Notes: generated by a model from the sequence alone, not told the origin. A stretch of 64,000 nt of DNA from an uncultured Chloroflexia bacterium (GCA_963796715.1 CAWCMN010000005.1:10199-74198); one strand, 5' to 3'; positions 730-11,437 are shown, numbered from the stretch's first letter. Numbers and translations are program-made.

Positions 730-1130
730 CTATTCGAACAATGACTCGACAGTGAGTTGCGTTCGGATTCGCAAGCGGCTCTCGGGGACATAGCGTTCGA
801 CGATCTGCATCGCCTCATTGACATCCTGGAGTCCGAGCTCGTCACGAAGCCTGACCAGATCTCGTGATCCCCCGGACGTGCGGCGTCTGCCTTCATGGCA
901 AACACATAGTCGGCGCCGGGTACATACAGCCGGAGGCCCGGGTACTCGGCCCAGAGATGTTGCGGCGGCTGGGTATAGATGAACCCCTTGGCCGCGTCGT
1001 TGAGCCAGTCGGCGGGCAGCGCGTGCCGTTTCGCGACGATGACGGCCGCCTCCCGCATCGGCTTTGGATCGCTTCCCACGATCGCGTCGACATCCTTGGT
1101 GGCCGTCCTACGAGGATGGATCTCCAGGGC
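730..1130 (-). pseudogene. DUF6036-like nucleotidyltransferase, copy 2 (5'-truncated and frameshifted)
   Basis: Same sequence as copy 1 with a 1-nt deletion near 861. Its 5' end abuts or overlaps the stop of the HD-GYP gene, so there is no proper N-terminus. Confidence 0.65.
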
Positions 1131-2544
1131 GCACGGCCTCGGCGGGTGTGGGCAGCGCCTGGGGGCGAGTGGCCACCGCTTCGGCACGCGCGGCCGCGGC
1201 CTGGCCGAGCAGGGGGATCGGCCGCGGCGCCACGGGCGGGCGGCCCGGGTCGGCCACGTTGCGCACCCAGTCGGTCCGGGCGAAGGCATCAAGCACGATC
1301 GGGTCGAACTGGATCCCCGCGTATCGCCGCAGCTCCAGGAGGGCCTGTTCGCGCGTCAGCGGCTGGAGGCGGTACGGGCGAGCGGCGGTCATGGCCTCGA
1401 ACGCGTCCGCGACATGCAGGATGCGCGCCAGCTTGGGGATGGCCTCTCCGACGAGGTGGTCGGGATAGCCCGAGCCGTTGTACCACTCGTGGTGGTGGCG
1501 GATGATCGGCAGCTCGGGCTTGAGGCGTTCGACTTCCATGATGATGTCGGCACCCAGGACCGGGTGCATGTTCATCTGGATGCGCTCTTCCTTGTTGAGG
1601 CGCTCAGGCTTCAGCAGGACCGCGTCCGACACCCCGATCTTGCCGATGTCGTGCAGCAGCCCGCCCCACTCCAGGGCCTCGATCTCCGCCTCGGAACACC
1701 CCATTTGCCGACCGATGGTGACCGCGATCTCCTGCACGTTCTTGCTGTGGTTGGACGTGTAGGGGTCCTTCTTGTCCACAGCCGACGCCAGAGCCCGGAT
1801 CGTCTGCGTGAACATGCTCCGGATCTCAACAACGTTCTTGAACGCTCCACGAGTCGAGGCTAGCGGCAGAGCGAAGAGAAGCGTCGCCCACCACCCGATC
1901 GTGGCGTAGACATAGGCGACGAGCCAAGCAAGGGGGCCAAGTGCCAACATGCTGGTGGCCACGAACCGGATGTCGCCGCTAAGCACCGAGCGCACCGTCA
2001 CTCCGTCCCGAGCGACGACCGCCGCAATTGTTAGGAACGTGTTCGAGGCTGTAGTAGGCCGCTCCCGCGACAACCACGGCGAACAAAGTCAGCAACGTTG
2101 CTGCGAAGGCGTCCGCCTGCAATGAACCGGTAGAGAAGCGCTGCGGCGATTGCGGGCAGGATGACCTCGCCGTGGTTGTAGACGGTTCCGTACCACGGGA
2201 TATCCGCCGCGGAGCTCCCGGGTTTCGGTTGTACCAATCGCCGCAACCAGACCACCGACAGCTGGCCCGCCCAACATCCCAGCCGCGAGAAGCGCGCTAC
2301 CTGAGACGCTGACCTGCGTACCCGCGTGGCAATTGATTGGAGACGCAGAGGAGCAGGGTCGCCACGATCCAGAAGGAGACGCCTTCGACTCCGAAATCCA
2401 GGGGCAATCGGGAATACAACAAGAGCAGCAGCCAGCGCAAACACGCTGGCTGCTGCTACGAATGCGATAAGTGCTCTGAGCGCGGCTCTCACGGTGGCGT
2501 GACGCTCCGTAGCATCGACGCCGTAGTCGTAAGGTGCCGATCAT
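1108..2544 (-). pseudogene. Membrane-anchored HD-GYP c-di-GMP phosphodiesterase, 5' half frameshifted
   Basis: Catalytic domain intact in ORF 1108-2073 (KDPYTSNHS, LLHDIGKIG, HHHEWYNGSGYP). Hydrophobic N-terminal segments are split over ORFs 2031-2492 and 2089-2544. GGAGGA RBS before ATG 2544. Confidence 0.8.
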
Positions 2545-2574
2545 CCGTTCCTCCGTAGGCCGAAAGTACCGGTG

Positions 2575-2658
2575 CTAGAGCAGGTGCACTCCGGCTCCGC
2601 CGGCCAACAGCACAGCTATGAGCGCCGCCAGCATCAAGGAAGCCCAATCGGGCGGCAC
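2575..2658 (-). CDS. Putative small hydrophobic peptide (VPPDWASLMLAALIAVLLAGGAGVHLL; alternative start ATG 2634)
   Basis: Hand translation: TAG at 2575-2577, GTG at 2658, ATG at 2634. Signal-peptide-like hydrophobic core, between the regulator and the HD-GYP gene. Confidence 0.35.
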   Translation of the reverse strand: MPPDWASLMLAALIAVLLAGGAGVHLL

Positions 2659-2890
2659 GCATCCTCATCTGACTACCAGGGCTTGAGAGTCATGGCCCGA
2701 CTCCTACTTGGGCCGCTGCTCTGAGAGAGAGCGGACGACCTGCGCTAGCCGTCGGTCGGGTTGCACTATCCGCTCAGCATCGCCCCAAGTGCCCAATTCA
2801 GGCGATGCGTCGACGCGCCCGTACGTTGTCCCGGTCTGGTACTTGAGTACTAGACCCGAGCAGGACTTTAGGAGTGGCCACGAAACCGGG

Positions 2891-5800
2891 TCAATACGCC
2901 GATCGGCGTATGGTTCCCCCTCGAACCGGCTCGATCTGCTCTAGTCGATCAGGCTCCACGCCCAGCTCCTCGCGGCTCACGGCTGCGTACCTTACGTATT
3001 GCTCGGCGGCAGCTGACCGCGAATCCGCCCCTAGGTAAAGGGCCACTAGTGATCTGTGAAGCTCCGGATTGCGAGGCTCCAAGGCAAGAGCTCTCTGAGT
3101 AAGGGCGAGCGCGGCGCTGACGTTGCTATGCCTGAGCAGCTGGGCCCTCGCCTTGTCGACGAGGTGCAGGAACACTGTGGCTAGTTGCTGACGCCAGTCC
3201 TGAGCCCACTCCTCGTACTCGAACTCCGGCGCGAACGAGCCGGAGTAATGGTCGATCGTCGCCAACAACCGTGCTGGCTCAGGGGCCGGGTCCTTTGACA
3301 AGGCCACGGCATCGGCGTGGAAGGTGACGCTATCAGCTACGACTAGGGCTTCATCCAGAGCCAGCGTTTCGCCTTCGTAGCGTACGTACTCGACTGAGGT
3401 GCCCACCTCATACCAGGGGTCGACATCCCGCCTCAGGAAGTAAAGGGTCTGGTTCAGGCTGTTGGCGGCTGCATCTGGGCTCAGATCAGGCCACAGGTCG
3501 TCGAGAACCCGCTCGCGTGTGGCCGTCTGGCGTGGGCTCGCCACCAGATAGAGCAGAAGGGATGCGGACTTTCGCCGCATCCGTCCGATGCCCACTGTGC
3601 GATCACCAATCGAAAGGTTGCCATTGCCCAGATCGTGGACCTGCAGGACTGGGCTAGTTCGCCTGACTAGATCCCTGCCCACGCCATTCCAGCCCGTCCC
3701 TTTGAGGTATTTGCGAGCGAACGCAGTGACCAGTGGAACATCCTCGCCCGAGCCGCAGCGATCGAGTACTAAGGCCGCCTGGCGCGAATTCGGGGTAAGC
3801 CCCGCTCCCAGTTGCTTCCGGAAGACCGGAAGCCACCGCTCGGGAAGCTCAGCGACGCTGTCGAGTAGCTCTGGCGGAAGTGTCGGAAGGACTTCCAGAT
3901 GGGCAGCCACCACCTCGGCAACTTCTGGAAGGCTTAGGCGTCCGGCCTCGCGCGCATCCTTGATCGCCTGAGCCAGGGCCTGCGGCTGTCGCGTTGCGGC
4001 CGCTAGGACAACCCTCAGCCTCGACGGCCACAGGCCGTTTCCTTCTTGGTAAGCGAGCTGCAAAGCTGACTGGGCCAGGTCGGTGGCCTCAGTGACCGAA
4101 CCACTAAGTAGTGAGGCCATGGCCGCGATGCTTGTGGCAGCCACCTGTGTGCCCGGGCCTTGAAGGGTAGCGTCGCGGCAGACGGCGAGCGCGCGAGTTG
4201 GATCCTCGCCGACTGCCCGGCGTGCATCCGCCAGGATGAAGGTCGACGTTGCAAGCGAGCTGACGCGGCCGCTCGTGATGTCGGAACGGATGCTTTCAAG
4301 CAGTGTGGTGGCGGTCGCTCCAGCGCCGAGCACGGTGGAGAGGTATGCGACCTCTAGCGCGGCGTCGGGCGGAATGACCCTCGCCTTCCGGACGGCCGCG
4401 AGATGTTCATCCATTGTCGCAAAGAGCCCCAGCTCCCCGGCGCATGCCGCCAAGGTGGCATGGGTGCCGAACGCCTCGCCAACGCCGAAGCCTTCCTCGC
4501 CGTAGAGGCCCAGCGCTCGCTCGCCGGCCGCGTATGCCTCGCGAAAGCGGCCGCGCGCCCGCTCCACCTCCATCAGGTTGTGCAGTGAGACTGCCGCGAA
4601 GAAGCCCAGGCCCTGCGCCTCGGAATCACCGGCCAGTCGTTGCAATTGTTCGGCCGTCTCGGCCAGCGGTTGCGCGAACCCGGGCAGCCCTACGGCAAGC
4701 AGAGCGCTTGCCACCGATTGGATGAGGACGGGAGACTCCGGATCGACGGCGATTTCGTTGTAGGCGCGGCGTGCACGCTCCAAATCTCCTAGCTGCCAGG
4801 CCAGCTTCATTTGAGAAAGCCTTACGAGACCACGACTCGCTGATGGGGTGGCGCCAAGGTCGATGCCGTCTAGGCGTCGCGCTGCCTCGTCGGGGTCTCG
4901 AGCCCTTAGGGCCCGGAGGGCGAGGATGACCTGGACGGCTGGCGCGTCCGGTTCGGTCGGGAAGCGGTCGAGGAGGTCGGCGGCGACGCCCCAGGCGCCA
5001 GTGCCGATGGCCACGAGCAGTGAATCACTCATGACGCGGACAGCCTCGGCGGGCTGGCTCGCCTCCAGGTAGTGGTAGCAGGCGGTGAGCCAGTCGTCCG
5101 CCTCGGCGGCGGCCGCGACCCGAAGGTGACGCTGGCGGATGACCTCCGCGGGCGTGTCATCGGCGAGTTGCCGCAGCAGGAACTCGCGCAGCAGCGGGTG
5201 GAAGCGGTAGCCGCGGCCGGACTCGCCGCGTCGGCCCATGAGCCCGAGATCGTCGGCGGCTTCGATCCACCCTCGCGCCGTCTGGATCGTGGGCGGTTCC
5301 GGGTCCTCCGCGAAGATCGCGGCGACCAGCGCGGGCACGATCCGGCGGAGGATCGCGGAGCCGATGACGAACCGACGAAGGTTCGGCGTCAACTCGCGGA
5401 GGACCTCCTGGGCCAGGAAGTCGTAGATGGGGCCCTGTGTGCCGCTCATGGCGCGCGTGAAGGCGCGGATCTCCAGGGCGGAACGCCCACGGATCGACGA
5501 CCGGAAGAGCTGCAGGCTGGCCGCCCATCCTTCCGTGCGCTGCTCGACCTGATCCAGCACGTCTGGCTCGAGTGGTTGCTGGTACGTCTCGCTGAACAGC
5601 ATGTCGGTCTCAGCGCGCGAGAAGCGCAGATCGTCCGTCGTCAACTCGGCGACCTGGCCCTGGGCCATCGGGCGGGCCAGGTCCAGGTCGGGTCGGCGGC
5701 GGCTGGCGATCAGCACGGATAGGCCGGATGGCGCCTCGCGCAGGAGGCGGGCCACGATCTCGCGGGCGTCCGGACTCAGATCGACGAGGTGGTAGTCGTC

Positions 5801-6418
5801 GAGGATGAGCAGGGCGGGCTGATCGACGTGCGCGACGTCCGCCAGCAGGGCATCGATGATGCGGTCGCGCGACTGGTCGGCCGTGGCCAGCTGGTCGAGC
5901 AGCCCCAGGGTGGCCTGGCCGAAACCCGGGTCCAGCTCCCGGTAGGCGGCGATGAGGTAGTTGGTGAACGAGATCCAGTCCGCGTCAGTGTGGTCGAGCT
6001 TGAACCACAGGACCGGCACTTCCGAACGGCGGCCGTAGTCCGCCAGGAGGGTCGTCTTGCCATAGCCGGCCTCCGCGATCACCAGCGTGAGGCGTTGCCG
6101 CGTGTGATGCCGTAGCCAGTCGATGAGGCGCGCGCGGGTGAGCGTCTCCTCGCGCAGCAGCGGCGGCGTGATCTTGGTGCGCGAGATGGAGCGAAAACCC
6201 GCGGGCCGCTCGCTCGAGGGCGAAAGATCCGGCTCCGCGGGCGCTGGAGACGGCATGACCTGCACCACCGATCGGTCAGGGCTCCAGGCGGACGGCTGGG
6301 CGGCCGGTTCGAGGCGCCTGGCTGGCGGCGCCAAGGCTACCGCGGGGCGTTCGGCGGTGTCGAGGGGTGCAGTCCGGTGGGCATCGGGCATGTCGGCAGT
6401 CTGCCGAACGGCGCTCAC
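2891..6418 (-). CDS. Large MalT-like STAND ATPase/TPR transcriptional regulator with C-terminal SARP/BTAD domain
   Basis: Walker A AEAGYGKTT, Walker B LLILDDYH, GW..YRFHPLLREFL winged-helix motifs; C-terminal RERVLDDLWPD...ANSLNQTLYFLRR and YSGSFAPEFEYEEW. Exact start uncertain. Confidence 0.88.
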   Translation of the reverse strand: MSAVRQTADMPDAHRTAPLDTAERPAVALAPPARRLEPAAQPSAWSPDRSVVQVMPSPAPAEPDLSPSSERPAGFRSISRTKITPPLLREETLTRARLIDWLRHHTRQRLTLVIAEAGYGKTTLLADYGRRSEVPVLWFKLDHTDADWISFTNYLIAAYRELDPGFGQATLGLLDQLATADQSRDRIIDALLADVAHVDQPALLILDDYHLVDLSPDAREIVARLLREAPSGLSVLIASRRRPDLDLARPMAQGQVAELTTDDLRFSRAETDMLFSETYQQPLEPDVLDQVEQRTEGWAASLQLFRSSIRGRSALEIRAFTRAMSGTQGPIYDFLAQEVLRELTPNLRRFVIGSAILRRIVPALVAAIFAEDPEPPTIQTARGWIEAADDLGLMGRRGESGRGYRFHPLLREFLLRQLADDTPAEVIRQRHLRVAAAAEADDWLTACYHYLEASQPAEAVRVMSDSLLVAIGTGAWGVAADLLDRFPTEPDAPAVQVILALRALRARDPDEAARRLDGIDLGATPSASRGLVRLSQMKLAWQLGDLERARRAYNEIAVDPESPVLIQSVASALLAVGLPGFAQPLAETAEQLQRLAGDSEAQGLGFFAAVSLHNLMEVERARGRFREAYAAGERALGLYGEEGFGVGEAFGTHATLAACAGELGLFATMDEHLAAVRKARVIPPDAALEVAYLSTVLGAGATATTLLESIRSDITSGRVSSLATSTFILADARRAVGEDPTRALAVCRDATLQGPGTQVAATSIAAMASLLSGSVTEATDLAQSALQLAYQEGNGLWPSRLRVVLAAATRQPQALAQAIKDAREAGRLSLPEVAEVVAAHLEVLPTLPPELLDSVAELPERWLPVFRKQLGAGLTPNSRQAALVLDRCGSGEDVPLVTAFARKYLKGTGWNGVGRDLVRRTSPVLQVHDLGNGNLSIGDRTVGIGRMRRKSASLLLYLVASPRQTATRERVLDDLWPDLSPDAAANSLNQTLYFLRRDVDPWYEVGTSVEYVRYEGETLALDEALVVADSVTFHADAVALSKDPAPEPARLLATIDHYSGSFAPEFEYEEWAQDWRQQLATVFLHLVDKARAQLLRHSNVSAALALTQRALALEPRNPELHRSLVALYLGADSRSAAAEQYVRYAAVSREELGVEPDRLEQIEPVRGGTIRRSAY

Positions 6419-6501
6419 CAGCCGCTTAGCTGCGCCTCATGCCCTCACCGGAGAAGCGGTGCACGGGGGCACCATCACGCGCTCGCCGGCGCGCGAACGG
6501 A

Positions 6502-6807
6502 TCAGGCGGGCGCCGACGCCGAGGTCGTGGCGAGGCGCACCACGTCGAAGCAGGAGCTGCAGTACACCGGCCGATCATTGCGCGGCGCGAACGGCACCAT
6601 GGCCTGCTGCCCGCACCGGGCACAGACGGCCGCGTGGTACTCGCGGGCCGCGCCGGCCGTGCGGTTCTGCTTGGCCACGGCGCGGCAGGACGTGCAGCGC
6701 TGCGGGTCGTTCTGAAGACCTTTGCTGGCAAAGAAGGCCTGCTCACCAGCGGAGAAGAGGAACGAATCCCCGCAATCCCGGCAGGTGAGTGTCCGATCCT
6801 GGTACAC
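6502..6807 (-). CDS. Zinc-ribbon domain protein (zf-trcl + CxxC-x17-CxxC type)
   Basis: YQDRTLTCRDCG..F.FSAGEQAFFASKG...RC..CR and CARCG...VPFAPRNDRPVYCSSCF; GTG start at 6807 after a GGGAG-rich RBS. Confidence 0.88.
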   Translation of the reverse strand: MYQDRTLTCRDCGDSFLFSAGEQAFFASKGLQNDPQRCTSCRAVAKQNRTAGAAREYHAAVCARCGQQAMVPFAPRNDRPVYCSSCFDVVRLATTSASAPA

Positions 6808-6979
6808 CCTCTCCCGACCTCCCTCGGCGGCGGCACAGCCGTCGCGGTCCGTCCCGGTTCCGGGTCGGCGGGTCGGGCGCTCGCCCTCCATCGGTCGCGT
6901 CCGTGGCCACTGTCGTCCCTTGGCCGGATTGAGGCGCGACTATAGGCACGCCGCGCGAGCGTGCGCAAGATGGAAAACG

Positions 6980-8338
6980 CTAGGCGTATTCCTCGGCGAA
7001 GCGCTCCGAGTCGGCGTAGCTGGTGAACCGCGTCTGGCCCTTCTTGAACCAGAGCTTGACCTCACCCGTGGGGCCGTTGCGGTGCTTTGCCAGGCGCAGG
7101 TTCACGACCTCGCCCTCGGCGTCGTTGTCCTCCGCCCCACGCTCCTTCTCCCGCCACAGGAACATGACCAGGTCGGCGTCCTGCTCGATGCTGCCCGACT
7201 CGCGCAGGTCCGACAGGCGCGGCTCCTTGGACTCGCGCATCTCCGCCTGCCGCGAGAGCTGTGAGAGGGCCACGACCGGCACCTCCAGCTCACGCGCGAG
7301 GGCCTTCAGGCCACGCGAGATCTCCGACACCTCCTGCACCCGGTTCGCGTCACGGGAGATGAAGTTGGACTGCATCAGCTGGAGGTAGTCGACGATGAGC
7401 ATGTCCAGCCCTGACTCGGCCTGCAGGCGCCGCGCCTTGGTGCGCAGCTCCATCGTCGAGATGTTGGGCGTGTCGTCGATGAAGACGGGCGCCTCCGCCA
7501 AGGCGTTCATGGCCGGCGCCAGGCGGGTGAAGTCCATCTCTTCCAGGAACCCGGTGCGCAGGCGCTGCGAGTTGATGTGGGCGACCGACGACAGCAGGCG
7601 GAGCACGAGCTGTTCCTTGCTCATCTCCAGGCTGAAGACGCCGACCGTCTTGCCTTCAGTGACCGAGGCGTACTCGGCGAGGTTGAGCGCCAGGCTCGTC
7701 TTGCCAACGGACGGCCGCGAGGCGACGATCACGAGGTCCGACTTCTGGAGGCCGGTGGTCAGCGCATCCAGGTCGCGGAACCCGGTGCGGACGCCGCTGA
7801 TCTCGCCCTTGTGCTCGTGGAGGTAGTCGAGACGGTCGTACGCGGAATGGAGCAGCGTGCGCAGGGGACTGAAACCGGTCTCCACCCGCTTCTGGCTGAC
7901 CGCGAACAGCTCCTGCTCCGCCCGGTCGATGGCCTCCCCGACATCCGGGCCGTCCTCGTAGCCGATGCCGGCGATGCGGCCGGCGGCCCCGATCAGGTTC
8001 CGCAGGACCGCCTTCCGCTCGACGATGCGGGCGTAATAGACGGCGTTGACGGCCGTTGGCGTGAGGTTGATGAGGCTGGTCAGGTAGGCGGCCCCGCCGA
8101 CCTGCTCGAGGGCGCCCTCGCGCTCCAGGACCTCTGACACCGTGACGATGTCGATCGGCTCGCGTCGTTCGTAGAGGTCCAGGATCGCGCCGTAGATCGT
8201 GCCGTGGTGGCCGCGATAGAAGTCGGCCGGGCGGAGGAGGTCGGCGACCTCGATGACCGCGTCGCGGTCGATGAGCAGGGCGCCAAGGACCGACTGCTCG
8301 GCGTCGATGGATTGCGGTGGCAGGCGATCGATGGACAC
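6980..8338 (-). CDS. dnaB: Replicative DNA helicase
   Basis: PPQSIDAEQSVLG, Walker A ASRPSVGKT, VDYLQLM, SDLRESGSIEQDAD, KHRNGPTG. Confidence 0.98.
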   Translation of the reverse strand: MSIDRLPPQSIDAEQSVLGALLIDRDAVIEVADLLRPADFYRGHHGTIYGAILDLYERREPIDIVTVSEVLEREGALEQVGGAAYLTSLINLTPTAVNAVYYARIVERKAVLRNLIGAAGRIAGIGYEDGPDVGEAIDRAEQELFAVSQKRVETGFSPLRTLLHSAYDRLDYLHEHKGEISGVRTGFRDLDALTTGLQKSDLVIVASRPSVGKTSLALNLAEYASVTEGKTVGVFSLEMSKEQLVLRLLSSVAHINSQRLRTGFLEEMDFTRLAPAMNALAEAPVFIDDTPNISTMELRTKARRLQAESGLDMLIVDYLQLMQSNFISRDANRVQEVSEISRGLKALARELEVPVVALSQLSRQAEMRESKEPRLSDLRESGSIEQDADLVMFLWREKERGAEDNDAEGEVVNLRLAKHRNGPTGEVKLWFKKGQTRFTSYADSERFAEEYA

Positions 8339-8521: not shown

Positions 8522-9173
8522 TCAGTCGAGCCGGCGGATGACCCCGATCAGCTTGCCCTGGATGCGCACGTCGTCGTAGATCATGGGCTCGTAGCGGCTG
8601 TTGGCGGGCTGCAGGCGGACGCGGCCGCCTTCCTTGAAGAAGCGCTTGAGGGTGACCGCGTTCTCCTCCACCTGGGCGACGACGATGTCGCCGTTGCGGG
8701 CGGTGTCCTGGGGCCGGATGACGACGTAGTCGCCGTCCTCGATGTGGGCGTCGATCATGGAGTCGCCGCGCACCTTGAGCAGGTAGGCGTCGCCGCTGGG
8801 GGCGAGGAACTCGGGCACGGCGAGGGTCTCGCTGGCGTCCTGGTACGCCTCGATGGGGCCGCCGGCGGCGATCTCGCCGAGCACCACCAGCAGGTGGCTG
8901 TCCATGGCCGCGACCTGCGGCAGGAGCTCGCTCGTCAGACCGGCATGCAGGGCGGCGGTGGGGGTGAGCCGCAGCGCGCGCGAGCGCGTCGCCCCGCGTT
9001 CGAGGTAGCCGTCCCGCTCCAGCGCCTCGAGGTGATGGTGGACCGCCGACGTGGAGGCCAGCCCGACCGCCTGGGCGATCTCGCGCACGGACGGGCGGAT
9101 AGCCGCGGGTGCGCAACGTGGCCGCGATGTATTCGATGATGCGTTGCTTGCGGGCGGCGTCGTGCTTGGTCAC
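8522..9173 (-). CDS. lexA: SOS repressor LexA, with apparent 1-nt frameshift near 9093-9095
   Basis: N-terminus MTKHDAARKQRIIEYI...RGYPP continues in another frame as VREIAQAVGLASTSAVHHHL. Ala-Gly cleavage site (GEIAAG), catalytic Ser (GDSM) and Lys (VTLKRF) intact. Confidence 0.93.
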
Positions 9174-9222: not shown

Positions 9223-9269
9223 GCCGACCGCGAAGCCCCGCGGCGCACGAGGGCAGGCCGTGAGAGTCT

Positions 9270-9442
9270 CGGACGCACACCGGTGGGACGTTGACGCGCC
9301 AGAGGCTGGGCGAGGCCGGGACGGGGCGCTCGTGAAGCGCGACAGTCGTACTCACGGCACGACGGGGGTCAGCGGCTTCGGGGCCTTGTGACCCGCCGCA
9401 CCGTAGCGAAACCCGCGCGAACGTCCCCCGGGCGTGCATCTG
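9270..9442. repeat. REP/MITE-like element A (173 bp) with 23-bp imperfect inverted termini
   Basis: Left CGGACGCACACCGGTGGGACGTT (9270-9292), right AACGTCCCCCGGGCGTGCATCTG (9420-9442); the right end overlaps the 3' end of the HTH-nuclease gene. Confidence 0.65.
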
Positions 9443-10097
9443 CGACGAAGCTCAAGGCTCTGATCACGCCGGTCGGATCCGCTAACCACGCCCGCAGTCG
9501 CGGAGCTCGGTCCGAGAGGGCTGCGCTGAAGACAGCCAGGTGCGCGCTCACCCGGCGTCGGTTCGTCGCGCCGTGGCCGATCGCCAGCCAGCACGACACG
9601 CTGAGCGGCGCCCAGCCAACGTCCCGCGCGATCACCCGGGCGAGGCGGACCTTGCGGTCAAGGGTCGCGAGGATCTCGCCGACGTCGACGATCTCCGTCT
9701 TGAGTTCGACGAGCAGCAGGGACCGGGACCCTTCGTGCCAGGCGAGCAGGTCCACCACCCCGCGCTCGCCGTAGATGGCGAATGACACCTCCGGCCGCAC
9801 GACCCAGCCGCGCAGCGATCCGAAGTCGCGCGCGACCTGCTCGGCCAGGGCGGCGTGGCGGCCGTTGGCAAGGCGATCGAGGTCCGCGCCACGCGACCGA
9901 CCGACCAGATCCATGCGCACATCCAGGGCGCGGCCGACCGACCGGATGGTCGACAGCGCCAGATGGTCCAGGTGCCCCCGTTCGACCCTTGAGATGGTCG
10001 CGCGCGAGACGCCGGCCGCCCGTGCGACGTCCACTTGTCGCATCCGACGGTGCACGCGCGACGCGCGCAGGGCGGCCCCGAGCCGCTGGTCATCCAT
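9369..10097 (-). CDS. XRE-family HTH protein fused to a PD-(D/E)xK (DUF559/Vsr-like) nuclease domain
   Basis: N-terminal HTH RRMRQVDVARAAGVSRATISRVERG; C-terminal GERGVVDLLAWH...LLLVELKT; ATG at 10097. Confidence 0.78.
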   Translation of the reverse strand: MDDQRLGAALRASRVHRRMRQVDVARAAGVSRATISRVERGHLDHLALSTIRSVGRALDVRMDLVGRSRGADLDRLANGRHAALAEQVARDFGSLRGWVVRPEVSFAIYGERGVVDLLAWHEGSRSLLLVELKTEIVDVGEILATLDRKVRLARVIARDVGWAPLSVSCWLAIGHGATNRRRVSAHLAVFSAALSDRAPRLRAWLADPTGVIRALSFVADARPGDVRAGFATVRRVTRPRSR

Positions 10098-10202
10098 CTC
10101 CGGAGGATGCAGCCCGGCGCTCACCGGACGCTTTGCTCTCGCGCGGTGTGGACGCGGTCGCTGCGCGGTGGTGACCTCCCCAGGCCTCCCGTCGCCAGGG
10201 CA

Positions 10203-10362
10203 CAGACGCACGCCCTGGGAACGTTAGCGCCCCGGTGAGCGCCTTACGGACCCTCGTAGTCGCTTCGAGGATCGATCCGTGCGAGCGGCCTGGCTGCTTG
10301 ACGGCCGCCATCGCGGGCGGCGCAGGGCCGAGGCGTTCCAACGTTCCACCGGCGCGCGTCTG
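10203..10362. repeat. REP/MITE-like element B (160 bp)
   Basis: Left CAGACGCACGCCCTGGGAACGTT (10203-10225), right AACGTTCCACCGGCGCGCGTCTG (10340-10362). Confidence 0.72.
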
Positions 10363-10451
10363 CGACAGTCGCCCGGGTCGGCCGCCGCCACGCTGACGCG
10401 ACGCCTGCTCGAGGTCGGCCGCCGAGCGCGGCCGCTATACTCCACCGTCCG

Positions 10452-10994
10452 ATGCCCTCTCGATCCCGTTCGCCGCGCCGTCGCGGCTTCATACGGGCCT
10501 TCAACTACCTGGCGTTCATGCCCCTCGCCTCGCGCGCGCCCACCTATGGACGGCTGCTCGCGGCGCTGCTCGCCGATGCCCGCGTGCCATGGACGCACAA
10601 AGCGATCCTGGGCCTGGCCGTCGGGTACGTCCTGTCGCCCGTGGATCTCGTGCCGGACTTCGTGCCCGTGCTGGGGGCCATGGACGACGTGGCGGTCACC
10701 CTGCTGGCGGTCGACCTGTTCCTGGAGCGCATCCCCGATGAGGTGCTGAACCAGAAACTGCAGGAGCTTGGCATCGAGCGCAACGCGCTGGAGCGCGACC
10801 TCGCGCAGGTCCGGCGCATGATCCCGCGGCCCGTGCGCCGCATCCTCGGCGAGCTGCCGATGGTCGTCGAGACGGGGGCCTCCATGGTCCGCGGGGCGAT
10901 GGCCGCGGCGCGCAGGACCGGCCTGGACCGGCGCCTGCGCGAGTGGCTCGAGGACACCACCCCTGACCAAGACCCGGAGGTACTGCCCGCGTGA
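10452..10994 (+). CDS. YkvA/DUF1232 family protein
   Basis: KAILGLAVGYVLSPVDLVPDFVPVLGAMDD motif. Confidence 0.88.
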   Translation: MPSRSRSPRRRGFIRAFNYLAFMPLASRAPTYGRLLAALLADARVPWTHKAILGLAVGYVLSPVDLVPDFVPVLGAMDDVAVTLLAVDLFLERIPDEVLNQKLQELGIERNALERDLAQVRRMIPRPVRRILGELPMVVETGASMVRGAMAAARRTGLDRRLREWLEDTTPDQDPEVLPA

Positions 10995-11437
10995 AGGTGA
11001 TCCTGACCAGCGATGTCGAGAAGCTCGGCAAGAGCGGGGAGCTCAAGGACGTCGCCGACGGGTACGCGCGCAACTACCTCATCCGCCAGAAGCTGGCCGT
11101 ACCCGCCGCGGGCGGTGCCTTCCGCGCCTGGCAGCACGACATCGCCAGCCGCGAGGAGAAGCGCAAGCGCGAGCGCGAAGAGGCCGAGATCGCGGCCACG
11201 CGCATCGCCAGCACGACCCTCACGATGGGCGTCAAGGTCGGTGACGGGGGCAAGCTCTACGGCTCGATCACGACCAAGGACATCGCCGACGCGCTCGGCC
11301 GGCGGGGCATCGAGGTCGACCGTCACAAGGTGGACCTGGATGAGCCCCTCAAGAGCCTCGGCACCTACAAGGTGGCCGTGAGGGTGTACGCCGGCATGTC
11401 GCCGGAAGTGACGGTGGTGGTCGAGCCCAAGGGCTGA
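10991..11437 (+). CDS. rplI: 50S ribosomal protein L9
   Basis: MKVIL..DVEKLGKSGELKDVADGYARNYL; GKLYGSIT..DIA. Confidence 0.97.
   Translation: MKVILTSDVEKLGKSGELKDVADGYARNYLIRQKLAVPAAGGAFRAWQHDIASREEKRKREREEAEIAATRIASTTLTMGVKVGDGGKLYGSITTKDIADALGRRGIEVDRHKVDLDEPLKSLGTYKVAVRVYAGMSPEVTVVVEPKG

Follow-up and report, generated by a model that had tools for sequence, protein, structure and literature searches.

In this study, we analysed a two-gene regulatory locus near one end of a 64,000-nucleotide stretch of DNA from an uncultured Chloroflexia bacterium (GCA_963796715.1 CAWCMN010000005.1:10199-74198). This whole stretch is called the window, and all positions are counted from its first letter. 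The locus consists of a gene for a STAND/SARP regulator, a leader and a gene for a MASE9-HD-GYP protein, all of which lie on the minus strand; a preliminary description had already called them co-oriented. That description had also pointed to a low-GC block covering the inner parts of both genes and the region between them, and had proposed that it is a swappable peptide-signalling cassette. The features are listed below, where NOD is the nucleotide-binding oligomerization domain, GC3 the GC content at third codon positions, c-di-GMP cyclic dimeric GMP, SD a Shine-Dalgarno sequence, ORF an open reading frame, uORF an upstream ORF and smORF a small ORF.

2891..6418, minus strand: regulator coding sequence, 1175 amino acids from GTG 6418
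4979..6178, minus strand: NOD of the regulator, conserved left flank with high GC3 (about 0.90), residues 81-480, Walker A motif AEAGYGKTT
3599..4936, minus strand: TPR-like sensor arm, residues about 495-940, called TPR-like by Pfam in homologues
3416..3577, minus strand: winged-helix DNA-binding domain (Trans_reg_C), residues 948-1001
2948..3298, minus strand: BTAD, residues 1041-1157, 40.5 bits (cut-off 22.1)
2895..2910, no strand: 16-bp palindrome TACGCCGATCGGCGTA adjoining the -35 element, family consensus ATACGC-N6-GCGTAT
2865..2894, minus strand: sigma-70-type promoter TTGACC-N18-TAAAGT, which overlaps with the stop codon of the regulator and is kept in nearly all loci
2833..2856, minus strand: 5' hairpin GGTCTAGTAC-TCAA-GTACCAGACC, family form (C)TAGTAC-N4-GTACTA(G)
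2745..2829, minus strand: c-di-GMP-II riboswitch aptamer (RF01786), with a private 1-nt insertion at about 2757 in the window copy
2673..2693, minus strand: mini-uORF MTLKPW-stop, SD AGGAG at 2701-2705, family form M-x-P-E-S/T-x-K-G/P-W-stop
2575..2668, minus strand: 29-codon hydrophobic smORF from ATG 2668, split in the window by a private 4-nt insertion near 2631-2634
1108..2492, minus strand: MASE9-HD-GYP gene from GTG 2492, with an intact ORF in the window at 1108-2073
1840..2492, minus strand: MASE9 membrane sensor domain (PF20972), N-terminal 230 residues, low GC3
1300..1791, minus strand: HD-GYP catalytic domain (HD_5), conserved right flank with high GC3, motifs HDIGK and HHEWYNGSGYP

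The true start of the regulator is likely ATG 6391, as called in relatives, which gives 1166 amino acids. The domain order is a MalT-type STAND NOD, a TPR-like arm, a C-terminal winged helix-turn-helix (wHTH) and a SARP-type BTAD. Profile searches placed AAA_16/AAA_22 and a MalT-type NOD at residues 81-457 (NCBIfam MalT, partial match), the MalT structure PDB 8BOB matched the NOD with an E value of 2.5e-34, WHD_MalT was annotated in homologues, and the Walker A motif was invariant. The protein was not assigned to MalT proper, with 190.8 bits against an NCBIfam equivalog cut-off of 537. Its C-terminus carries Trans_reg_C and BTAD instead of the LuxR-type HTH of MalT. Trans_reg_C scored 22.2 bits in the window, below the Pfam cut-off of 26.2, and was annotated by Pfam in many homologues. 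An OmpR-type winged helix followed by BTAD is the SARP-type module, although the C-terminal placement is atypical and differs from AfsR, in which the module is N-terminal. The profile matches agree with the ATPase N-terminus and BTAD end that had been proposed for this regulator, and its full-length relatives number in the thousands.

The HD_5 match of the downstream gene reached 127 bits, the HD and HHExxxGxGYP motifs were intact, and the PDB relatives were 5Z7C, 4MCW and 4R8Z. By these features, the protein belongs to the HD-GYP family and is a predicted c-di-GMP phosphodiesterase. Against the MASE9 profile PF20972 (cut-off 24.3 bits), the orthologues in the related loci L003 and L004 scored 30.1 and 23.8 bits, respectively, and many homologues were annotated with it. 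To our knowledge, no signal is known for the MASE9 membrane sensor domain. The fusion of an N-terminal MASE9 to HD-GYP is the same as in the MASE9-HD-GYP proteins of the Thermotoga maritima TM1467 type (Galperin and Chou, bioRxiv 10.1101/2021.11.05.467447), but the present MASE9 exists as alleles, and a conserved 29-amino-acid ORF lies ahead of it.

The module is conserved well beyond the window. A scan of species-representative genomes gave 80 loci, all in Chloroflexota and mostly in Ca. Limnocylindria, and in approximately 65 of them the regulator was followed, after about 1 kb, by an HD-GYP gene of the same strand. The order was STAND/SARP regulator, promoter, c-di-GMP-II riboswitch, SD-led mini-uORF, 29-amino-acid smORF and MASE9-HD-GYP. 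A metagenome scan with the NOD added only three new close relatives, L085, L086 and L088.

The mean GC content of the window was 71.9% (0.719). Sliding GC was 0.61-0.65 at about 1500-3900 and 0.65-0.68 at 3900-5000, so that about 1500-5000 was the lowest-GC stretch past the first kilobase; beyond 5 kb, every kilobase was at least 0.676. In the regulator, in-frame GC3 was 0.85-0.93 over residues 100-480, fell within about 40 codons to 0.62-0.75, and stayed there from residue about 490 (window about 4950) to the stop codon at 2891, with a partial and brief rebound to 0.80-0.85 at residues about 580-680. In the HD-GYP ORF, GC3 was 0.75-0.77 down to about 1830 and 0.88-0.93 after that. The GC shift seen by eye in the preliminary description was borne out by in-frame sliding GC3, which dropped from about 0.90 to about 0.68 at about 4950 and recovered at about 1830, and the block limits of 1780 and 5050 given there were correct to within about 100 nt.

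An identical trough with the same boundaries was found in approximately 50 loci, whose regulators were only 32-59% identical. In these loci, the mean GC3 of the NOD, arm, wHTH/BTAD, MASE9 and HD-GYP catalytic part was 0.85, 0.70, 0.70, 0.72 and 0.88, respectively, and the mean GC of the leader was 0.60. Because the trough is present in so many distant loci, it is ancient and class-wide and is not the mark of a recent swap. The GC3 values of conserved, intermediate and variable alignment columns were 0.86, 0.85 and 0.83 in the NOD, 0.67, 0.70 and 0.70 in the arm, and 0.89, 0.87 and 0.87 in the HD-GYP catalytic part, respectively. Over the column classes, the arm, DNA-binding end and MASE9 gave 0.67-0.73, compared with 0.83-0.86 in the NOD and 0.87-0.89 in the catalytic part. 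Since conserved and variable columns had equal GC3 inside each region, the trough is a regional effect. A recently gained foreign island, or weaker codon selection at poorly conserved residues, might have been expected from the fact that the block is the lowest-GC region of the window and is less conserved in protein sequence. We consider such an origin very improbable: the distant loci with shared boundaries rule out the island, and the like GC3 of conserved and variable columns rules out codon selection by residue conservation.

In four loci of the same block type (allele A, defined below), the rate of synonymous substitution (dS) in the block was 2-2.5 times that of the NOD, and the ratio of nonsynonymous to synonymous rates (dN/dS) was about 0.1 in both, with no sign of positive selection within the allele in these four loci. 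A mutation-bias balance estimate for GC3 of 0.69 versus 0.90 would yield roughly the dS ratio that was seen.

The low-GC3 block coincides with an allelic block, and the edges of both lie at the NOD/arm and MASE9/HD-GYP junctions.

4912..4925, no strand: left boundary of the block, between PAVQVI and LALRAL at residue about 498, where alleles A and B lose all DNA similarity
1835..1975, no strand: right boundary zone, in the last MASE9 helices between DIRFVA and ASMLALAPLAW, where similarity and GC3 recover

The proposal of an agr-like hypervariable block between conserved flanks held, in that close backgrounds carried strongly diverged blocks. Backgrounds that were almost the same (99.7% identity over 5 kb, or 96% within one sample) had blocks whose regulator parts were 31-49% and whose membrane-sensor parts were 58-70% identical. 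L002 and L004 were 99.68% identical over 4990 nt without a gap, and similarity was then lost within a few bases at about 4925; beyond this breakpoint, at regulator residue about 498, the arm was 32% and the DNA-binding end 49% identical. Between L004 and L001, identity was 83-94% upstream, 52-68% over about 3 kb, and 82-90% from about 1965 through the catalytic domain and the next genes. The window and P0005/L084 were 96% identical down to 4912, had no similarity over 4912-2918, and were 83% identical beyond. A difference in evolutionary rate without swapping, which had been considered from the four allele A loci, was overturned by the domain-wise identities of L004 and P0005. The arm was the most divergent part, with 31-33% amino acid identity between alleles and a mean of 27% family-wide.

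Allele A was carried by the window, L001, L002, L003 and L102. L084 and L004 shared allele B and were colinear through the block, with flanks of about 86-88% and a block of 69-77% identity. L085 had allele B in a third lineage, and L086 probably has it too, as judged from the 25 nt of its contig that lie beyond the breakpoint. L084 and L001 belong to one assembly, so alleles A and B occur in one sample, and each occurs in at least two lineages. Because divergence within an allele is greater in the block than in the flanks, and both alleles are found across lineages, the alleles are old and not recent imports. MASE9 formed at least three groups (A, B and C) that were 58-70% identical to one another, and the catalytic parts were 90-100% identical. 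Group C (L101) came from a more distant syntenic genome. Compared with the window, the neighbouring genes of L101 were 75-80% identical and the HD-GYP catalytic DNA was 88-94% identical, with a jump at window about 1835. Since this catalytic DNA is far more similar than the neighbours, DNA crosses lineages at the MASE9/catalytic junction. The high-similarity island (window 1835-1235 versus L101 about 10600-11300) would fit a catalytic half that was recently transferred or subject to gene conversion. Because the alleles were seen in short-read and long-read assemblies of several projects, and the loci carry single-copy dnaB, rplI and lexA, chimeras or paralogues are unlikely.

The block holds the sensor arm, the DNA-binding end, the leader with promoter and riboswitch, both small ORFs and most of MASE9. 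In the leader, TTGACC-N18-TAAAGT at 2894-2865 was the only sigma-70-like site within 1000-7000. The promoter, the inverted repeat and the 5' hairpin were kept almost everywhere in the family, and the palindrome beside the -35 is a candidate operator or activator site. We also considered the AGTAC-N4-GTACT hairpin as a LexA box; this was dropped, as the sequence occurs once in the window and is absent at the lexA promoter.

The preliminary description had missed the c-di-GMP-II riboswitch, which would give direct c-di-GMP feedback on the hydrolase. The window aptamer scored 51.4 bits (E 2.3e-9) against a Rfam gathering score of 53.5, lowered by its private 1-nt insertion; near-identical short-read contigs were without this insertion, and the orthologous aptamers of L001, L002 and L003 scored 55.4, 57.9 and 55.9, respectively, above the gathering score. 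With a covariance model built from four aptamers, the aptamer was found in 52 loci, always between the regulator and HD-GYP and 100-150 nt past the regulator stop. Among 55 distinct sequences, 90.4% of cells paired, 14 of 17 pairs had double changes, and none of 500 shuffles matched this. P3 covaried at 8 of 8 pairs, and the outer P1 was weak (61.6% paired). The segments of the predicted pseudoknot, namely the P3 loop GGGCAC and the 3' strand GUGC..CC, are complementary and nearly invariant, so they lie beyond the reach of covariation. In most loci, the aptamer 3' side (CCGACCGAC) has GUC(A)GGUCGG as an alternative pairing partner, and a U-run comes next, as in a terminator. An ON switch is predicted, because ligand-stabilised P1 should prevent termination. 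The window clade is without the U-run, and its CCGAC strand can pair with GUCGG directly 3' of the uORF SD, which suggests translational ON control in this clade.

The aptamer was lost in a sub-clade comprising L007, L015 and others, where only a TGGGCACT remnant is left. In the sub-clade L007-L033, no aptamer was found by Rfam at the gathering threshold, by our own model with filters off or by Rfam in E-value mode. Among the loci inspected, L007 and L015 retained the uORF and smORF, and L007 also retained the promoter and 5' hairpin. The smORF is the most constant element of the leader, because it is kept even in the sub-clade that lost the aptamer.

The SD-led mini-uORF had also been overlooked before. 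It was present in 45 of 48 loci, with a strong SD, a start codon, 6-10 codons and the ending K-x-W/F-stop. Its stop codon lay 2-33 nt ahead of the smORF start, and the smORF was mostly without its own SD; in the window, the smORF ATG at 2668 is four bases past the uORF stop. In L048 (about 8540-8790) and L078 (about 8530-8740), the uORF had grown by three to four in-frame tandem repeats ending in TKGW, for example MESTSVTKGWTVLAVTKGWTVLAVTKGWTVLAVTKGW followed by a stop. These repeats suggest a function for the K-G-W end itself or for its RNA sequence AAGGGCUGG.

The hydrophobic micro-ORF of the preliminary description (2575..2658, 27 amino acids, GTG start) is the 3' part of the 29-codon smORF. 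As had been proposed, a small hydrophobic ORF with an AGGAG/AGGAS-type C-terminus was kept at this position, in 48 of the 50 homologous loci with enough sequence between aptamer and HD-GYP, and it had a coding signature. Its summed entropy at the first, second and third codon positions was 32.8, 23.9 and 47.1, respectively, and because variation was highest at third positions, we take the smORF to be coding. Its length was exactly 29 codons in most loci. The window clade has MRMRAARL(G/S)FLGAAL(I/M)AVLLAGGAGVH(L/P)L followed by a stop, the family consensus is MKARLMRIALTLSSVAMIALAGGASLRGF, and the family ending is AGGA(G/S)xxxx. The architecture is a charged N-terminus, a hydrophobic core and a small-residue A-G-G-A motif ahead of the last 5 residues; this motif is conserved class-wide. 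Neither Pfam nor NCBIfam had a family matching the smORF. Residues 3-16 differed between alleles A, B and C, and the arm and MASE9 also differed between A and B. After the smORF stop, GTACTT(T/C)CGGCCTA was conserved in alleles A, B and C (window 2577-2500), and this motif may be an additional hairpin between the smORF and the HD-GYP start. In L007, a strong terminator-like hairpin GGAGGCAC..GTGCCTCC with a U-run was found at 8589-8625, between smORF and HD-GYP.

The window copy of the locus is broken at several places. Compared with L001, 11 of the 17 indel events in 13.3 kb fell within 2735-1844. The broken parts are the aptamer, with one inserted base at about 2757, the smORF, with four near 2631-2634, and MASE9, with about 8 private events. 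Short-read soil-metagenome contigs that were 99% identical to the window were without each private indel. In sister ENA long-read assemblies, dnaB was split in L084 (8309-9276) and the regulator was split in L102 (6471-9458), by indel errors of the type that we suspect in the window. We believe that the window frameshifts are most probably consensus errors, and strain mixtures in the variable block were perhaps an aggravating factor. True pseudogenisation of MASE9 and the smORF was judged unlikely in view of the 99%-identical contigs without indels and the sister assemblies that fragment essential genes.

We believe, with a probability of about 0.6, that Ca. Limnocylindria (Chloroflexota) possess a conserved c-di-GMP module of two genes, of which the low-GC stretch forms the variable core. 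The conserved ATPase- and HD-GYP-coding flanks would serve as homology anchors for exchange, and the sensor or specificity parts of both proteins, together with the leader, would be inherited and exchanged as one unit. The block would escape a recombination-linked (or other regional) GC-favouring force that holds GC3 near 0.9 elsewhere, because diverged alleles cannot form heteroduplex inside it, and it would drift to a GC3 of about 0.7 with synonymous evolution about twice as fast. High c-di-GMP would turn on the smORF/HD-GYP operon through the riboswitch, which would be negative feedback; P1 would compete with the terminator in most loci and, in the window clade, with the helix beside the uORF SD. 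The uORF would supply ribosomes to the smORF, which has no good SD, and the regulator probably acts at the conserved palindrome adjoining the -35. For the 29-amino-acid product, the most probable role is that of a membrane partner of MASE9 with a single membrane pass; in our ranking, an exported signal comes second and a purely regulatory leader peptide third.

Several points weigh against this explanation. The terminator pairings and the SD-adjacent helix are invariant and hence have no covariation support. The operator half-sites and the smORF C-terminus do not vary with the allele, and over its last 13 residues the smORF product is identical in A and B. Alleles A and B are defined by few close relatives (about 8 for A and about 5 for B), and the NOD of the allele C lineage also differs (72% at the nucleotide level), so that C may not be a third allele on the same background. 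We infer the link of GC3 to recombination or GC-biased gene conversion, and another regional mutational or selective cause, such as low GC around a structured leader, might act instead. The coherence of the block could also be mere linkage.

This last alternative is a serious null model, and we regard it as possible although it falls short of an even chance. It holds that two independently fast-evolving sensor domains flank a short leader, without co-adaptation or balancing selection, that recombination starts just in the conserved flanks, and that introgression from diverged relatives exchanges the entire stretch at once. The low family-wide conservation of the arm would then be expected, the boundaries would simply be where homology stops, the catalytic DNA of L101 testifies to cross-lineage movement, and the half-sites and smORF C-terminus do not co-vary with the allele. 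It accords less well with old alleles, as both alleles occur in both lineages and within-allele identity is lower in the block than in the flanks, or with the presence of a moderately conserved DNA-binding domain and a leader inside the block. The pherotype-like signalling of the preliminary description makes the smORF a precursor with a signal-peptide-like N-terminus and a short C-terminal peptide, for example SLRGF or GVHLL. This product would be exported and sensed outside by MASE9, inside by the TPR-like arm, or by both, and the alleles would be specificity groups held by frequency-dependent selection. We consider it unlikely. The geometry does resemble agr/comQXP, with the smORF inside a hypervariable block between a membrane sensor and a regulator arm; the charged N-terminus, the hydrophobic core and the A-G-G-A before the last 5 residues would suit a precursor; the alleles have been kept in two lineages and are found together in one sample; and the smORF was retained even where the riboswitch was lost. 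However, a C-terminal mature pheromone could not carry allele specificity, because A and B do not differ in the last 13 residues, and the motif is shared throughout the class. There is no gene for processing, modification or export within the block, the dN/dS of about 0.1 within allele A gives no sign of positive selection, and 29 amino acids suit a small membrane protein equally well.

It is likewise doubtful that the smORF and uORF are purely regulatory leader peptides whose products have no function of their own, acting by translation-coupled attenuation or by nascent-chain stalling at K-x-W-stop and R/K-G/P-F/L-stop. In favour of this, the C-terminal residues next to the stop codon are conserved in both ORFs; the strong uORF SD, the mostly SD-less smORF and the 2-33 nt between them point the same way, as do the terminator-like hairpin of L007, the tandem KGW units of L048 and L078 and the riboswitch-uORF interplay of Mycobacterium tuberculosis (PMC11260477). 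Against this, the smORF is exactly 29 codons long in most loci, and its charged N-terminus and hydrophobic core, which stalling does not need, are kept throughout. The most far-reaching idea is a social or self-recognition system of Ca. Limnocylindria, in which the 29-amino-acid peptide or a fragment of it is read by MASE9 and by the STAND/SARP sensor arm, peptide sensing is coupled directly to c-di-GMP turnover with feedback from the riboswitch, and discrete allele groups under cross-species balancing selection set the responders. We rate it as a speculative and distinctly improbable extension.

The kinds of components found here are already known, namely the c-di-GMP-II riboswitch, the MalT-type STAND ATPase, the SARP module, MASE9-HD-GYP and riboswitch-uORF coupling. 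In the literature, we found neither the module nor the 29-amino-acid ORF described, nor any c-di-GMP locus with an allelic cassette. In Staphylococcus, the agr hypervariable region covers the 3' part of agrB, agrD and the 5' part of agrC, and in Bacillus subtilis the comQXP locus shows pherotype polymorphism. The present locus shares with these systems a discrete, deeply diverged block between conserved flanks in close strains, which contains a small ORF and the membrane sensor half and leaves the catalytic half outside. Unlike in them, a STAND/SARP regulator and an HD-GYP phosphodiesterase take the place of a histidine kinase, no peptide-processing gene is present beside the regulator, the two small ORFs and HD-GYP, A and B share the C-terminal half of the peptide, and the block includes a riboswitch and a uORF. 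Small hydrophobic ORFs also stand beside TPR-containing regulators in the RRNPP systems (Rap/Phr, PlcR/PapR and Rgg/SHP), but the regulator described here is an ATPase from a different family. The smORF product may alternatively resemble small membrane subunits, for example KdpF, in that a single-pass peptide of about 29 amino acids would be encoded ahead of its membrane partner.

The riboswitch has the sequence and helices of RF01786, with covariation, and lies upstream of a c-di-GMP turnover gene, as is usual for this class. It differs in that it occurs in high-GC Chloroflexota with a uORF and a smORF intervening before the enzyme gene, in that the window clade is without the majority terminator, and in that a sister sub-clade is without the aptamer. 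The regulator combines a NOD and TPR-like arm resembling MalT, at a match far under the equivalog cut-off, with a wHTH and BTAD pair as in SARPs, which here replaces the LuxR-type HTH. In M. tuberculosis, B12 riboswitches act on the downstream gene through a translated uORF that comes after them (PMC11260477); in contrast, the present locus has another ligand class, two successive small ORFs and conserved peptide sequences.

Two further observations concern the surroundings of the locus. At the window edge, positions 1-1107 are a tandem direct duplication of a unit of 613-614 nt, with 1-494 matching 615-1107 at 99-100%. The duplication ends exactly at the HD-GYP stop codon, and its unit encodes an ORF of about 116 amino acids, for which Pfam gave no match. 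Similarity to relatives ends at 1134, where they have a DUF5317-MFS gene, and the duplication may be an insertion or an assembly artefact. On the other side of the locus, a segment of about 1.2 kb (9245-10419) separates DUF1232 from lexA and carries an XRE/HTH_31-type gene (ORF 9369-10211, minus strand); this segment is present in the window and L001 and absent in L084, L004, L002 and L101.

If our explanation is true, the module lets c-di-GMP regulate the enzyme that hydrolyses it, by way of a class-II riboswitch whose effect is passed on by two tiny translated ORFs, and MASE9 gains a candidate ligand or partner in the 29-amino-acid peptide. The locus would also be a multi-allelic sensor cassette swapped between catalytic flanks outside the quorum-sensing loci of Firmicutes. 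The signature of depressed regional GC3 and a doubled synonymous rate would be usable for the study of recombination and GC-biased forces in high-GC genomes, and composition alone could find similar cassettes. The host class is uncultured but abundant in soil and freshwater.

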